DNA of 64,000 bases from NCBI RefSeq assembly GCF_045037415.1, contig NZ_CP173438.1. One strand, given 5' to 3'. The notes beneath the pieces were generated by a model. It searched no databases and was not told the DNA's origin. It saw only the letters and a list, made by a program, of their open reading frames with translations. The position numbers and the translations under genes are program-made. This stretch comes from Escherichia coli (lineage in GTDB: Bacteria > Pseudomonadota > Gammaproteobacteria > Enterobacterales > Enterobacteriaceae). Position 1 is the first letter of the stretch. The number at the start of each line of letters is the position of its first letter. This document shows positions 2,733-62,071 of the stretch, piece after piece.

Positions 2733-3602
2733 TTATTTCAGAACAGTTTTCAGTGCTTCACCGATATCAGCCAGGCTGCGAACGGTTTTCACGCCTGCGG
2801 CTTCCAGAGCAGCGAATTTCTCATCCGCAGTACCTTTACCACCGGCAATGATGGCACCCGCGTGGCCCATACGTTTGCCTTTCGGCGCAGTCACACCAGC
2901 GATGTAACCCACAACTGGCTTGGTGACGTGCTCTTTGATGTACGCAGCCGCTTCTTCTTCAGCGCTACCGCCGATCTCACCGATCATCACGATCGCTTCA
3001 GTCTGCGGATCTTTTTCGAACATTTCGAGAATATCGATAAAGTTAGAGCCAGGGATCGGGTCGCCGCCGATACCAACACAGGTCGACTGACCGAAACCGT
3101 AATCCGTGGTCTGTTTAACCGCTTCATAGGTCAGCGTACCGGAACGGGAAACGATACCCACTTTACCTGGTTTGTGAATGTGACCCGGCTGGATACCGAT
3201 TTTGCATTCCCCCGGGGTGATAACGCCTGGGCAGTTCGGGCCGATCATACGAACGCCTGCTTCATCCAGTTTCACTTTCACCGTCAGCATATCCAGCGTC
3301 GGGATGCCTTCAGTGATGGTGATAATCAGTTTGATGCCTGCATCGATAGCTTCCAGAATGGAGTCTTTGCAGAACGGTGCTGGTACGTAGATAACAGAGG
3401 CGGTAGCGCCAGTGGCAGCAACAGCTTCACGCACGGTGTTAAACACCGGCAGGCCGAGGTGGGTAGTACCGCCTTTACCTGGGGTTACGCCGCCAACCAT
3501 TTTAGTGCCGTATGCAATGGCCTGTTCAGAGTGGAAAGTCCCCTGGCTACCAGTAAAGCCCTGGCAGATAACCTTGGTGTTTTTATCAATTAAAATGGAC
3601 AT
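2733..3602 (-). CDS. sucD: succinyl-CoA synthetase alpha subunit
   Basis: 289 aa; [25 protein letters not shown]-terminus; CoA-binding and His-phosphorylation motifs; start overlaps sucC stop. Confidence 0.97.
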
Positions 3603-4768
3603 TATTTCCCCTCCACTGCGGCAACAACCTGCTGAGCTGCATCCGTCAGACCTTTTGCTGCAATAATATTCAGGCCGCTGTCAGCCAGTTTCTTCGCACC
3701 GAGTTCGGCGTTGTTACCTTCCAGACGTACCACGACCGGTACGTTAACACCCACTTCTGCTACCGCGCCGATGATACCGTCAGCGATCAGGTCGCAACGA
3801 ACGATACCGCCGAAGATGTTAACCAGAACGGCTTTCACTTTGTCGTCAGAGAGGATGATTTTGAACGCTTCGGTTACACGTTCTTTGGTTGCGCCACCGC
3901 CAACGTCCAGGAAGTTAGCCGGTTCGCCGCCGTGCAGTTTAACGATGTCCATCGTACCCATCGCCAGACCTGCGCCGTTAACCATACAACCGATGTTACC
4001 GTCCAGCGCAACGTAGTTCAGTTCCCACTGTGCAGCCTGTGCTTCACGCGGATCTTCCTGCGACTGGTCACGCATTTCACGCAGATCAGGCTGGCGGAAC
4101 AGTGCGTTGCCATCAGCGCCCAGTTTGCCGTCGAGGCAAATCAGATCGCCCTGTTTGGTAATAACCAGCGGGTTGATTTCGATAAGCGCAAGGTCGCGCT
4201 CCAGGAAAATGGTCGCCAGGCCCATGAAGATTTTGGTGAACTGCTGAACCAGTTTACCTTCCAGACCCAGTTTAAACGCCAGCTCGCGTCCCTGATACGG
4301 CATCGGGCCAGTCAGCGGATCAAGCGCAACTTTGTGGATCAGGTGCGGAGTTTCTTCCGCCACTTTTTCGATTTCCACGCCGCCTTCGGTGGAGGCCATA
4401 AAGACCACGCGACGGGAACTACGGTCAACAACGGCACCGAGATACAGCTCTTTAGCGATATCGGTCGCTGCTTCAACCAGAATCTGGTTAACCGGTTGGC
4501 CATTGGCATCTGTTTGATACGTTACCAGACGCTTGCCCAGCCAGTTTTCTGCAAAAGCACGGATGTCTTCTTTGCTGTTTACAACTTTCACACCGCCCGC
4601 TTTACCGCGGCCACCAGCGTGAACCTGACATTTCACTACCCACGGACCGGCACCGATTTTTGAAGCGGCTTCTTCTGCTTCGCGTGGAGTAGTACAGGCA
4701 TAACCCACCGGTGCTGGTAAGCCATAGCGGGCAAAAAGTTGTTTTGCCTGATATTCATGTAAGTTCAT
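3602..4768 (-). CDS. sucC: succinyl-CoA synthetase beta subunit
   Basis: 388 aa; [19 protein letters not shown]-terminus (ATP-grasp). Confidence 0.97.
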
Positions 4769-4808
4769 GTGTTCTGTCCATCCTTCAGTAATCGTTATCT
4801 TTTAAACC

Positions 4809-4839
4809 GTAGACCGACCCCCTATCCACGTCGGTCTAC
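4809..4839. repeat. Inverted repeat / stem-loop in the sucB-sucC intergenic region
   Basis: gtagaccgac ... gtcggtctac, 10-bp arms, about 11-nt loop. Confidence 0.5.
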
Positions 4840-4861
4840 AGTGCAGGTGAAGCTTAAACTA

Positions 4862-6079
4862 CTACACGTCCAGCAGCAGACGCGTCGGATCTTCCAGCAA
4901 CTCTTTGATCGTTACCAGGAAGCCCACGGATTCGCGACCATCGATCAAACGGTGATCGTAGGACAGCGCCAGGTACATCATCGGCAGGATCTCAACCTGG
5001 CCATTCACCGCCATCGGACGATCTTTGATAGCGTGCATACCCAGAATTGCGCTCTGCGGCGGGTTGATGATAGGCGTAGACATCAGGGAACCGAACACAC
5101 CACCGTTGGTGATGGTAAAGTTACCACCAGTCAGATCTTCAACCGTCAGCTTGCCGTCACGGCCTTTAACTGCCAGCTCTTTAATTTTCTTCTCGATGTC
5201 TGCCATGCCGAGGGTATCGACATCACGCAGAACCGGCGTCACCAGGCCGCGCGGCGTAGAAACCGCCATACTGACGTCGAAATAGTTGTGGTAGACCACA
5301 TCATCGCCGTCGATAGACGCATTCACTTCCGGGTAACGTTTCAGGGCTTCAACCACCGCTTTCACGTAGAAGGACATAAAGCCCAGACGGATGCCGTGGC
5401 GTTTTTCAAACGCTTCACCGTACTGCTTACGCAGATCCATAATCGGCTTCATGTTGACTTCGTTGAACGTGGTCAGCATGGCGGTGGAGTTTTTCGCTTC
5501 CAGCAGACGCTCTGCCACACGCTTACGCAGGCGAGTCATCGGCACACGTTTTTCGCTACGTGCAGCCAGGGCCGGTTGCGCCGCCGGAGCAGCCGCTGCC
5601 GGAGCAGACTCTTTCGCCGGGGCTTTCGCCAGATGTTTTTCCACATCTTCACGGGTCAGACGACCACCCACACCCGTGCCTTTAATGGCGCTGGCGTCGA
5701 GGTTATGTTCAGCCAGCAGGCGACGGATCGCCGGGCTTAACGCATCGTTGTTTTGCTCTTCCAGAGACGCCTGCTGGCGTTGCGCCGGAGTGGACGCTTT
5801 CTCTTCAGATTTGGCGCTGGTTTCTTTACCGGCGCTGTTGCCTTCACGCAGGCGACCAAGGATCTGACGAGACGTTACGGTTGTACCTTCATCTTCCAGA
5901 ACCGCATCCAGAATGCCGTCTGCTGATGCCGGTACTTCCAGTACCACTTTGTCAGTTTCGATTTCTACCAGCACTTCATCACGTACGACTACGTCGCCGG
6001 GTTTTTTATGCCAGGTTGCGACGGTGGCATCGGCTACGGATTCAGGCAGGTCAGGGACCAGAATATCTACGCTACTCAT
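4862..6079 (-). CDS. sucB: 2-oxoglutarate dehydrogenase E2, dihydrolipoyllysine succinyltransferase
   Basis: 405 aa; lipoyl domain ([13 protein letters not shown]), Ala/Pro-rich linker, catalytic domain DHRLIDG. Confidence 0.97.
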
Positions 6080-6093
6080 TGTGTATCCTTTAT

Positions 6094-8895
6094 TTATTCG
6101 ACGTTCAGCGCGTCATTAACCAGATCTTGTTGCTGTTTCTGGTGAACGGACATATACCCTACCGCCGGAGAGGCGGAGGCCGGGCGGCCTGCATAACGCA
6201 GAGAAGCCCCAAACGGAATCACTTCACGGAAATGATGCTGGCTGCAGTACCATGCGCCCTGGTTGAGCGGCTCTTCCTGGCACCAGACAAAATCCTTGAC
6301 GTGAGCAAACTGCTGCAACACTTCCTGCATCGCTTTATGCGGGAACGGGTAGAGTTGCTCGATACGCACAATGGCGACATCGTGTTGATTGTTCTTACGA
6401 CGTTGTTCCAGCAGATCGTAATAAACCTTACCAGAACACATCACTACGCGCTTCACGCCCTTCGGATCAAGCTCGTCGATTTCACTGATGGCTGGCAGGA
6501 AGGTGCCGTTCGCCAGTTCTTCGAGGCTGGAAACCGCCAGCGGATGACGCAGCAGGGATTTCGGCGACATCACGACCAGTGGACGACGCATCCCGCGCAA
6601 CGCCTGACGACGCAGCATGTGGTAAACCTGTGCCGGGGTAGAAGGTACGCAAACCTGCATGTTTTGCTCAGCGCAAAGTTGCAGATAACGTTCCAGACGC
6701 GCGGAGGAGTGCTCCGGCCCCTGCCCTTCGTAACCGTGCGGCAGCAACATCACCAGGCCACACATCCGGCCCCATTTCTGTTCGCCAGAGGAGATGAACT
6801 GGTCGATAACCACCTGTGCACCGTTGGCGAAGTCACCGAACTGTGCTTCCCAGATGGTCAGGGTGCGTGGTTCTGCGGTGGCATAACCGTATTCAAACGC
6901 CAGTACGGCTTCTTCAGACAGTACAGAGTCCCAGACGCGGAACGCGCCCTGGCCGTTATGGATATGTTGCAGCGGCGTGTAAGTGGAACCGTTAGACTGG
7001 TTGTGGATCACCGCGTGGCGGTGGAAGAAGGTACCGCGACCGGAGTCTTCACCCGACAGGCGAACCGGAATGCCTTCGTCAACCAACGTGGCGTAAGCGA
7101 GGTTTTCCGCGCCGCCCCAGTCGAACAGTTTCTCACCGGCTGCCATCGCCTGGCGATCGCCATAAATTTTGGCAACGCGAGACTGCATTTCAACCGCTTC
7201 CGGCACCGTGCTGATGCGTTTAGCCAGTTCCTGCAGGCGCTTCATCTCAACTTTGTTCGGGTACTCTTCGTCCCATTCGTGGTTGAGGTACGGCGACCAG
7301 GTGAAAGAGTGCATGTTCATCGGACGCCACTCTGCTACAACGCAATCGCCAGCATCCAGCGCATCGCGGTACAGGTTAACCATCTCGGTGGCATCTTCCA
7401 GCGTCGCGACTTTTTCCTGCTCCAGCTTGTCAGCGTAGATTTTGCGCGGCGTCGGATGTTTTTTGATTTTCTGATACATCAGCGGCTGGGTTGCGCTCGG
7501 CTCGTCGGCTTCGTTGTGGCCGTGACGGCGGTAGCATACCAGGTCGATGAAGACATCACGTTTAAAGGTGTTACGGAAATCGAGCGCCAGACGGGTCACA
7601 AAGGCAACGGCTTCCGGATCATCCGCATTAACGTGGAAAATCGGTGCCTGAACCATCTTACCGATATCAGTACAGTACGGCGTCGAACGGGCATCCAGCG
7701 GGTTAGAGGTGGTGAAGCCAACCTGGTTGTTGATAACGATACGTACCGTACCGCCAACTTCATAACCACGCGCTTTCGACATGTTCAGGGTTTCCTGAAC
7801 TACGCCCTGCCCGGTCACTGCGGCGTCACCATGAATGGTGATTGGCAGCACTTTGTTGCTGCTCGGCTCATCAAGTCTGTCCAGACGGGCACGAACAGAA
7901 CCGATAACGACCGGGCTTACAATCTCAAGGTGAGACGGGTTAAACGCCAGCGCCAGGTGCACCAGGCCGCCATCGGTCTGGAAGTCAGACGAGAAGCCCA
8001 TGTGGTATTTCACGTCGCCCGTGCCGAGGTGTTCTTTATGTTTACCGGCAAACTCGTCGAACAAGTCTTGCGGTTTTTTACCCAGCACGTTCACCAGCAC
8101 GTTCAGACGACCACGGTGCGCCATCCCGAGAACCACTTCGCGGGTGCCGCTGTTGCCAGCGTGGCGGATCATCTCTTTAAGCATCGGGATTAACGCGTCA
8201 CCGCCTTCCAGCGAGAAGCGTTTTGCGCCAGGGAATTTTGCGCCAAGGTAACGTTCAAGGCCTTCAGCGGCGGTCAGTTCGCTTAAGAAGCGTTTTTTCT
8301 CTTCGCTATTGAAAGTCGCGCGACCAGACTCGATACGCTGTTGGATCCAGCGTTTTTCTTCGGTGCTGGTAATGTGCATATACTCGGCACCAATCGGGCC
8401 ACAGTAGGTTTGCTTGAGGGCTTCCAGCAGCTCGCCGAGTTTCATGGTTTCTTTGCCGCTGGCAAATGAACCGACGTTGAAGGTCTCCTGGAAGTCTGCT
8501 TCGGTCAGATCGTGGAAAGACGGATCCAGATCGGCCACTTTATCTTGCTGCCACAGTCCCAGCGGATCGAGATTCGCATGCTGGTGACCACGGAAGCGGT
8601 ATGCGTTAATGAGCTGCAGGACTTTAACCTGCTTCACATTGGTGTCAGGGTCGGAGATCGTTGAAGAGTAACGTGAAGCGTCTTTCGCCAGGCGGCGGAA
8701 ATATTCACGCGTTTGAGAGTGGAATTGATCCGGTTTGACTCCCGTACCAGGTAACTGCTGGAACGTCGAACGCCAGTTAGCGTCAACCGAGTCAGGATCG
8801 GTTAAGAAGTCTTCATAGAGCTGTTCTATCCAGCTCTGGTTTGCGCCAGAGAGGTAAGAAGAGTCCAACCAGGCTTTCAAAGCGCTGTTCTGCAT
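6094..8895 (-). CDS. sucA: 2-oxoglutarate dehydrogenase E1 component
   Basis: 933 aa; [32 protein letters not shown]-terminus. Confidence 0.97.
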
Positions 8896-9068
8896 CGTGA
8901 TCCCTTAAGCATCTTTTTTATGCTTACTTCGCCGTGGATACTACCACGCACATTTCATATCTGATGTGCGTGCCGGGGTTCACTTGTTGCGGACTTGTCG
9001 TGTTTTCTGCGTCCGCTAAGGAACCTTTAAAAACTGTCTTAGTGTCAGGGGCAGTTTTTAAAGATTTC

Positions 9069-9258
9069 CTGCATTTCTTTTGTAGGCCGGATAAGGCATT
9101 CACGCCGCATCCGGCGCTGTTTGCCTGATGCGACGCTTGCGCGTCTTATCAGGCCTACGGTTTCTGCATTTCTTTTGTAGGCCGGATAAGGCGTTCACGC
9201 CGCATCCGGCACTGGTTGCCTGATGCGACGCTTGTGCGTCTTATCAGGCCTACGGTTT
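9069..9258. repeat. Tandem duplication of a roughly 95-bp REP/BIME unit
   Basis: Two near-identical copies of ctgcatttcttttgtaggccggataaggc-ttcacgccgcatccggc...gcctgatgcgacgctt-gcgcgtcttatcaggcctacggttt, abutting the sdhB stop codon. Confidence 0.75.
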
Positions 9259-9973
9259 ACGCATTACGTTGCAACAACATCGACTTGATATGGCCGATGG
9301 CGCGCGTCGGGTTCAGCCCCTTCGGACATACACTGACGCAGTTCATGATGCTGTGACAGCGGAATACACTGAATGCATCGCTCAAACCGTCGAGGCGGCT
9401 GTCAGTCTCGGTATCACGGCTATCGATCAGGAAACGATATGCCGCTAACAAGCCTGCCGGACCGATAAACTTATCGGGATTCCACCAGAAAGACGGACAA
9501 GAGGTTGAACAACATGCGCAGAGAATACATTCATACAACCCGTCGAGTTTTTCGCGCTGCTCTGGCATCTGTAAATGCTCGCGAGCTGGCGGATTTTGTC
9601 CATTATTCAACAGGTAAGGCTTAATTTTCTCATATTGCGCATAGAATTGTCCCATGTCTACCACCAAATCGCGGATCACCGGTAAACCTGGCAGCGGACG
9701 AATCACAATCTTCTTGCCCGGCTGGTTGAGTGCCGAAATCGGGGTAATACAGGCCAGACCATTCTTACCGTTCATGTTCAGACCGTCGGAACCGCACACA
9801 CCTTCACGGCAGGAGCGGCGGAACGACAGGCTGGGATCTTTCTCTTTCAGCTGAATAAGCGCATCCAGCAGCATCATGTCGCGACCTTCTTCCGCTTCCA
9901 GGGTGTAATCCTGCATACGCGGAGCATCATCAACATCCGGGTTATAGCGATAAATTGAAAACTCGAGTCTCAT
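9257..9973 (-). CDS. sdhB: succinate dehydrogenase iron-sulfur subunit
   Basis: 238 aa; Cys clusters for 2Fe-2S, 4Fe-4S and 3Fe-4S. Confidence 0.97.
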   Translation of the reverse strand: MRLEFSIYRYNPDVDDAPRMQDYTLEAEEGRDMMLLDALIQLKEKDPSLSFRRSCREGVCGSDGLNMNGKNGLACITPISALNQPGKKIVIRPLPGLPVIRDLVVDMGQFYAQYEKIKPYLLNNGQNPPAREHLQMPEQREKLDGLYECILCACCSTSCPSFWWNPDKFIGPAGLLAAYRFLIDSRDTETDSRLDGLSDAFSVFRCHSIMNCVSVCPKGLNPTRAIGHIKSMLLQRNA

Positions 9974-51080: not shown

Positions 51081-51110
51081 GCCGGATGCGGCGTAAACGC
51101 TCTATCCGAC
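51081..51110. repeat. REP-like palindromic element
   Basis: gccggatgcggcgtaaacgctctatccgac resembles the REP consensus. Confidence 0.4.
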
Positions 51111-51119
51111 AACGTAAAC

Positions 51120-62027: not shown

Positions 62028-62032
62028 TTGTT

Positions 62033-62057
62033 GGATGCGACGCTGCCGCGTCGCATC
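62033..62057. repeat. REP-like palindrome between the island-B operon and nagE
   Basis: ggatgcgacgc-tgc-cgcgtcgcatc. Confidence 0.4.
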
Positions 62058-62071
62058 AGACATAAAGCAGA

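Follow-up and report, generated by a model that had tools for sequence, protein, structure and literature searches.

A two-unit BIME-2 array between sdhB and sucA is one allele of a variable-number tandem repeat in Escherichia coli

The spacer between sdhB and sucA in Escherichia coli raises the question of what the repeated sequence found there is, how old it is, and whether it bears on expression of the two halves of the sdh-suc transcript. The question was addressed in a 64-kb stretch of E. coli DNA (here called the window), in which sucA and sdhB, followed by sdhA, sdhD, and sdhC, are encoded on the minus strand and gltA is divergent from the sdh and suc genes. Annotation of sdhB and sucA was supported by BLAST against complete E. 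coli genomes, and the 361-bp spacer and the features within and around it are collected in Table 1. Tandem Repeats Finder indicated one array with a period of 95 bp, 2.1 copies, 94% matches, no indels, and a score of 352. The array is extragenic, lying between the sdhB stop codon and the sucA start, and it accounts for 188 of the 361 bp of the spacer (~52%), such that the claim of an earlier, preliminary description that the repeat fills most of the spacer was generous. Gapless alignment of the two units gave 91 identical positions of 95, for which the chance probability in register is ~1.7e-49, and the four differences were located at 9098/9193 (A/G), 9116/9211 (G/A), 9120/9215 (T/G), and 9140/9235 (C/T). 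Thus, the units are nearly identical, as had been proposed, but the word "exact" that was applied to the duplication in the title of the same description does not hold. ORFs of 46 to 64 amino acids overlap the array, and these are mechanical by-products of the REP sequence.

Table 1. Positions of the repeat array and neighboring features; positions are those of the window unless otherwise indicated
Feature	Position	Strand	Description
sucA	6094-8895	minus	start at 8895
sdhB-sucA spacer	8896-9256		361 bp
sdhB ORF	9257-9973	minus	
sdhB stop codon	9257-9259	minus	TAA
Tandem array	9069-9265		as delimited by Tandem Repeats Finder
Stop-proximal unit P	9164-9258	minus	95-bp BIME-2: Z2 REP, 7-nt tail-to-tail linker AACCAGT, Y REP, 18-nt head-to-head linker AAAAGAAATGCAGAAACC
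Z2-type REP, proximal	9218-9253	minus	loop ACAA
Y-type REP, proximal	9177-9210	minus	iREP orientation on mRNA strand, CTAC at end
Distal unit D	9069-9163	minus	95-bp BIME-2: Z2 REP, 7-nt tail-to-tail linker AAACAGC, Y REP, 13-nt terminal linker AAAAGAAATGCAG after the last unit
Z2-type REP, distal	9123-9158	minus	loop GCAA
Y-type REP, distal	9082-9115	minus	C-to-T change at the loop-closing position, read as a G-U wobble in RNA
Hairpin directly downstream of array	9022-9067	minus	AAAAACTG...CAGTTTTT
Remainder of sucA 5′ leader	8896-9021	minus	context outside the repeat
Polymorphic hairpin block	8989-9016		GCGGAC-16 nt-GTCCGC; window and E. albertii
Long-loop hairpin	8945-8972		CACGCACA...TGTGCGTG; window and E. 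albertii
GlnZ-target-like sequence	8928-8939	minus	ATCCACGGCGAA
Hairpin	8907-8925	minus	
Shine-Dalgarno sequence	8901-8906	minus	AAGGGA
Region of IS1397 insertion	3251-5142 of the extracted BH100N locus		

Each unit contained a pair of REP palindromes, as the preliminary description had noted. On the mRNA strand, the first REP of each unit is 36 nt long (GTAGGCCTGATAAGACGC-NCAA-GCGTCGCATCAGGC) and the second is 34 nt long and in the opposite orientation (GCCGGATGCGGCG-TGAA-YGCCTTATCCGGCCTAC), and GTAG or CTAC is present in all four REPs of the array. The REPs were typed by regular expression as Z2 and Y, respectively, labels that rest on REP325 as a reference and on the general REP consensus. 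At the junction with sdhB, the mRNA strand reads TAA-ACC-GTAGGCC, with GTAG beginning at +4 after the stop codon and the stem beginning at +4 to +8. The duplication had been said to end on the sdhB stop codon; the proximal unit as delimited indeed overlaps two bases of the TAA, but the REP itself, beginning with GTAG, starts 3 nt beyond it.

BIME-2 elements are composed of Z2 and Y REPs in multiple tandem copies, with a short linker S, a flanking linker, and a conserved GTAG (PMC3333891, PMC1187871), and the anatomy of the units in the window matches that definition. The array alternates REP with iREP in tandem conserved units that retain GTAG, occupies an extragenic site, varies in unit number among strains, and is a target of IS1397. 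Both Y and Z2 REPs were present and Z1 was absent, the Z REPs being 36 nt with a GACGC/GCGTC stem as opposed to the 29-nt Z1-like REP found in K-12. Alignment to the Rfam model RF02564, which spanned each unit end to end with all stems kept and the linker alone 6 nt shorter, agreed with the Y/Z2 typing and bore out the earlier assignment of the sequence between sdhB and sucA as REP/BIME. No essential difference separated the window array from the BIME-2 elements of E. coli. We conclude that the feature is an ordinary BIME-2 array, a long-known kind of E. coli repeat, and that the two-unit form is a common natural allele.

Comparison with known systems placed the array more closely. REP325, a six-unit BIME-2 between yjdM and yjdN, shares the Y-Z2 unit with the window array, and both lie between two codirectional genes of one operon. 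The window array differs from REP325 in having two units, with a 95-bp period, and a tail-to-tail linker that is 6 nt shorter, and its Rfam-sense strand is antisense to the operon. At the same locus in K-12, where the spacer is 300 nt, the first Z2-linker-Y pair is also located 3 nt past the stop codon, and the conserved hairpin downstream and the GlnZ target are shared with the window. In K-12, however, the Z2-Y pair is followed by a short Z1-like REP (an "atypical BIME") in place of a second Z2-Y unit, and the hairpin block further downstream differs from that of the window. The Z2-Y pair is also similar to a REPIN, a putatively mobile doublet of REPs, in that the two inverted REPs of a unit are predicted to form one long hairpin (approximately −44.5 to −44.8 kcal/mol), and the GTAG required for binding of TnpA-REP (PMC3333891) is intact throughout the array. 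The locus differs from REPINs mobilized by RAYT/TnpA-REP in that whole units were added or removed in place, for which homologous recombination alone suffices as an explanation.

To determine spacer length in other strains, the final 250 nt of sdhB were fused to the initial 250 nt of sucA to form a query, and length was read from the span of the hit in the 5,425 of 5,426 complete genomes that matched. Allele frequencies were estimated by systematic "spread" sampling of those genomes, which yielded 59 informative rows. Spacers of 199 to 200 bp that lacked REPs were found in 19 of the 59 (32%), and the 300-bp K-12 type, Z2-Y-Z1, was found in 23 (39%). Two units were present in spacers of 349 bp (5/59; 8.5%) and in the 361-bp spacer of the window (7/59; 12%), together 20% of the sample, while three units were present in spacers of 445 to 456 bp (3/59; 5%) and four units in spacers of 550 bp (2/59; 3%). 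As a cross-check, 1,768 of the 5,425 genomes covered less than 80% of a REP-containing query, which put the REP-less share at ~33%. Spacers of 266 and 311 bp also occurred among the complete genomes, where the 445- to 456-bp class extended to 457 bp, and the rare 266-bp allele of strain E1 was the window spacer minus the proximal unit. Moreover, a 561-bp query (8800-9360) was matched with 100% identity by several E. coli chromosomes that are unrelated to one another. Comparison with the same spacer in other strains, which had been suggested as a follow-up, therefore uncovered ordinary BIME-2 length polymorphism, the states seen being 0 units, Z2-Y-Z1, and one to four units. REPs in this spacer and strain-level length polymorphism of BIME-2 elements have been known and described for decades. 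We conclude that the array represents a single allele of a variable-number tandem repeat of long standing, in which 95-bp units are gained and lost singly.

The four variable positions were used to define unit types. The arrangement was P-D in the window, D in E1, and P-P-D in 24AR0180 and H22; further arrangements were P-D′-D′ in BH100, P′-P-D in EC67, and P′-P-P′-D in SSGw1, 25POL, and GPEC1186. Because unit types differ among strains, different units have been duplicated or lost independently on related backgrounds. The GTAG of the first REP was lost in the alleles of RIVM_C019217, SSGw1, and EC67. Gain and loss would involve either unequal recombination between units or slippage from one unit to another during replication, and the REP-associated transposase TnpA-REP may assist. 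REPs of E. coli are known targets of the insertion sequence IS1397 (PMC1525189), and in BH100N a copy interrupted the loop of the Z2 REP nearest the stop codon, between GACGCACAA and ACAAGCGTC with ACAA on both sides, which demonstrates that the array is an IS1397 target at the DNA level. We note that the unit order was P-D′-D′ in BH100 and P(IS)-P-D′ in BH100N, which belong to one strain lineage, and the disagreement reflects either very rapid change or a difference in assembly. The REP-less alleles were not simple empty sites: in strain W, ~38 nt of unrelated sequence (TTAAATGTTGATGCCGGGGAAATCCCCCGGCTATTCAG; positions 405-444 of the extracted locus) with a GC hairpin replaced the array, and REP-less alleles rejoined the common sequence at GGAAATC. 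The array of strain N96 began with ATTCA, like the end of the W-type replacement segment.

To determine how far the array extends beyond E. coli, species-representative genomes were scanned with a 21-mer (CTGCCCCTGACACTAAGACAG) taken from the conserved hairpin downstream of the array. The scan matched only Escherichia albertii NBRC 107761. No E. coli record was returned, even though the 21-mer was present in every E. coli allele read, and thus the scan is uninformative on Salmonella or other genera; the 21-mer region of the E. coli representative may be absent from the representative collection or its index. In E. albertii, a 550-bp spacer carried four 95-bp units at the same site, followed by a downstream leader of the window type, which indicates that the array is old. 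Over 90 compared positions, the two window units differ from one another at 4 and from the units of E. albertii at 3 to 10, and because they are as divergent from each other as from units of another species, for which counts of 3 to 4 were obtained, the duplication in the window is not recent. In both E. albertii and the window, the first unit had the Z2 loop ACAA and the last unit had CAGC at the end of its linker. In E. albertii, the inner linkers carried a species-specific G (AAAAGGAATGCAG), which suggests concerted evolution. From these sequences, we infer that an array with two or more units either predates the species split or was exchanged between the species and was later partly homogenized. 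The E. albertii array spans spacer nucleotides 1 to 380 in mRNA orientation; its first REP is degenerate, with CCAGTCC for GTAGGCC, and its third unit has stem mutations (GGATACGG and CCTGC).

Folding of the array in the mRNA sense gave −98.3 kcal/mol compared with −60.4 ± 3.9 kcal/mol for shuffled sequences (z = −9.8). Alternative folds of close energy were four single REP hairpins (−84.1 kcal/mol), two unit-long hairpins, each formed by a Z2 paired to a Y REP (−92.3 kcal/mol), and a nested form (−95.8 kcal/mol). Each unit-long hairpin is predicted to be an imperfect duplex of ~30 bp, in principle enough for RNase III. All four differences between the units fell in loops, in a linker, or at a loop-closing wobble position where C to T gives G-U, a placement that is weakly suggestive of stem conservation.

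Newbury et al. are said to have found in 1987 that REPs shield upstream mRNA from 3′ exonucleases, and attenuation associated with BIMEs was reportedly described by Espeli et al. in 2001. RNase III sites have been reported in the sdhB-sucA spacer of K-12, where SucA drops in an rnc mutant (PMC9731577), and RNA-seq gave a signal for a known K-12 RNase III site at 758515 (Gordon et al., PMC5371410). As sdhB ends at 758405 in NC_000913.3, the site corresponds to nucleotide 110 of the spacer, within the third REP (nucleotides 93 to 121). REP325 stabilizes the upstream mRNA, attenuates the downstream gene ~8- to 10-fold, partly via Rho, and gives rise to a ladder of hairpin-ended transcripts (bioRxiv 10.64898/2026.03.23.713779). 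In the same study, tandem gene pairs separated by REPs showed a raised upstream/downstream expression ratio genome-wide, with REP effects being strongly context dependent and half-lives not uniformly changed. Finally, gyrase cleavage sites are enriched in BIME-2 elements (PMC6379681), a report in which the sdhB-sucA locus is not named.

By analogy with these systems throughout, functional steps can be proposed for the window allele. The array would be transcribed within the polycistronic sdhCDAB-sucABCD mRNA and, as suggested by the predicted fold and by the K-12 and REP325 papers, would form very stable hairpins right after the sdhB stop codon. Such hairpins would block 3′ exonucleases and thereby stabilize the sdhCDAB part, and would partially attenuate read-through into sucABCD, probably with help from Rho. 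Long REP-REP duplexes would be substrates for RNase III, and their cleavage would separate the sdh and suc halves, and the DNA of the array is a probable gyrase site. The most likely role of the array would thus be that of a stabilizer, attenuator, and processing block between the two halves of the transcript. Consistent with published work, the idea in the preliminary description that the element bears on processing and stability of sdh/suc mRNA is reasonable, and it is already in the literature in general form. Two observations run counter to a role in RNA: the RNase III signal of K-12 lies in the Y/Z1 pair, which is missing from the window allele, and no intrinsic (Rho-independent) terminator-like site, defined as a GC-rich hairpin with a T-run after it, was found on either strand within 8700-9500. 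Moreover, about one-third of E. coli genomes are REP-less at the site, and therefore the array is dispensable, its effect cannot be essential, and whatever influence it has must be small or compensated for. We consider it very probable that the element is a two-unit BIME-2, an old variable-number allele, whose RNA hairpins would stabilize sdh and attenuate or process read-through into suc.

Alternatively, the array could be neutral or selfish, persisting and changing length by recombination or by the REP-associated transposase, with unit number having no measurable effect on sdh/suc expression. Consistent with neutrality, alleles with zero to four units all occur in successful lineages, the sucB-sucC BIME of K-12 is simply missing from the window strain, length polymorphism is general across BIME-2 loci (PMC3333891, PMC1187871), and REP effects, being dependent on context, are often undetectable (10.64898/2026.03.23.713779). 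Neutrality fits poorly, however, with the same site, 95-bp period, and intact stems being found in both E. coli and E. albertii, with RNase III processing in the K-12 REP cluster (PMC9731577, PMC5371410), and with the upstream-biased expression ratio of REP-containing tandem gene pairs genome-wide (10.64898/2026.03.23.713779). We regard a neutral repeat as a real possibility, the chances of which fall somewhat short of even.

Another possibility is that the REP nearest the stop codon acts mainly on translation, by stalling the terminating ribosome such that trans-translation ensues and less SdhB is made, with extra units being irrelevant. REPs 15 nt or less from a stop codon are reported to stall ribosomes and downregulate translation (Liang et al. 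2015, as relayed in PMC12306157), and sdhB falls within that distance, as GTAG starts 3 nt past the TAA and the stem starts 3 to 7 nt past it. In the accessible part of the text on stop-proximal REPs, however, sdhB was not found named, and the same spacing occurs in K-12, such that the effect would say nothing about the duplication. Action on translation is also compatible with a stabilizer and attenuator and could operate alongside one. As the main function of the array, we consider it rather unlikely.

A further alternative is that each unit is a gene for an naRNA4-like, nucleoid-associated noncoding RNA that condenses the chromosome together with HU. The naRNA4 family is defined as one Y-linker-Z2 unit of the six-unit REP325 (PMC4550694), and the units scored 86.8 and 79.6 bits against RF02564, above the gathering cutoff of 59.5, the two being the sole above-threshold Rfam matches in the window. 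A match to mir-8515 (E = 0.19) was noise. The naRNA4 matches were on the plus strand, however, and the operon is on the minus strand, such that the matching strand is antisense to the operon and is not the transcribed one; the minus strand scored 53.7 and 46.7, below the cutoff. In addition, no sigma-70-like promoter was found on either strand within 8700-9500, and RF02564 is in effect a generic model of the BIME-2 unit. Finally, REP325 and naRNA4 did not measurably compact the nucleoid according to a 2026 preprint, among whose authors is the senior author of the original work (10.64898/2026.03.23.713779). With the match on the wrong strand and the function of the family disputed, we reject the presence of an naRNA4 gene here as very improbable.

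Lastly, assembly can collapse or expand tandem repeats of such a length, and the BH100 and BH100N records disagree in unit arrangement, but a recent strain-specific event or an assembly artifact is refuted to near certainty by the occurrence of the identical 361-bp spacer in ~12% of the complete genomes sampled, with carriers from unrelated sources, by the four positions at which the units differ, and by the presence of the same array in E. albertii.

The number of units after sdhB could be a heritable, stepwise dial that sets expression of succinate dehydrogenase relative to 2-oxoglutarate dehydrogenase and succinyl coenzyme A (succinyl-CoA) synthetase in a lineage-specific manner. We think such a dial improbable; were it real, more units would mean stronger attenuation and more RNase III substrates. 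On its own, the array matters little and is a textbook BIME-2 length variant. The locus is nonetheless a convenient test bed for REPs as tunable terminator-stabilizer dials, with a series of zero to four units, several of which share one flanking haplotype, and with RNase III processing already documented in an operon that is highly expressed and important to cell physiology. In particular, the arrangements D, P-D, and P-P-D form a natural near-isogenic series on one haplotype.

The sequence downstream of the array was also compared among alleles. The hairpin directly downstream was kept in every allele examined, including the REP-less alleles and E. albertii, and it is a fixed landmark that delimits the variable array on the right. 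The leader block further downstream (8945-9016) recombines with respect to the BIME alleles, as the 349- and 361-bp two-unit forms differ only in that block. In the leaders of K-12, W, and RIVM_C019217, a different sequence had the same hairpin shape (GCGAGC...GCTCGC) with a shorter loop, and the swap could be a structure-preserving replacement at a place where RNase III and GlnZ act. The GlnZ-target-like ATCCACGGCGAA, which precedes the sucA start by ~33 to 44 nt, is complementary over most of its length to the GlnZ seed that has been published (UUGCCGUGGAAA) and was identical in all alleles read, including E. albertii.

Other REP-like sequences were noted in the window. The sucB-sucC spacer (4769-4861) is 93 bp long and has no Y or Z REP, the only hairpin being GTAGACCGAC...GTCGGTCTAC. 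The K-12 sucB-sucC spacer is 274 bp (269-542 of the extracted locus) and contains a cluster of REP-like palindromes, one of which fits the strict Y/Z2 patterns; the region has been named as a BIME-2 with a strong gyrase site (Sutormin et al.). Compared with K-12, the window is therefore richer in units at sdhB-sucA and without any at sucB-sucC. Two degenerate, lone REP-like palindromes, one Y-like (GCCGGATGCGGCGTAAACGCTCTATCCGAC; ~51081-51115) and one Z-like (GGATGCGACGCTGCCGCGTCGCATCAGAC; ~62030-62065), each occur a short way downstream of a hairpin that resembles a terminator and has a T-run.
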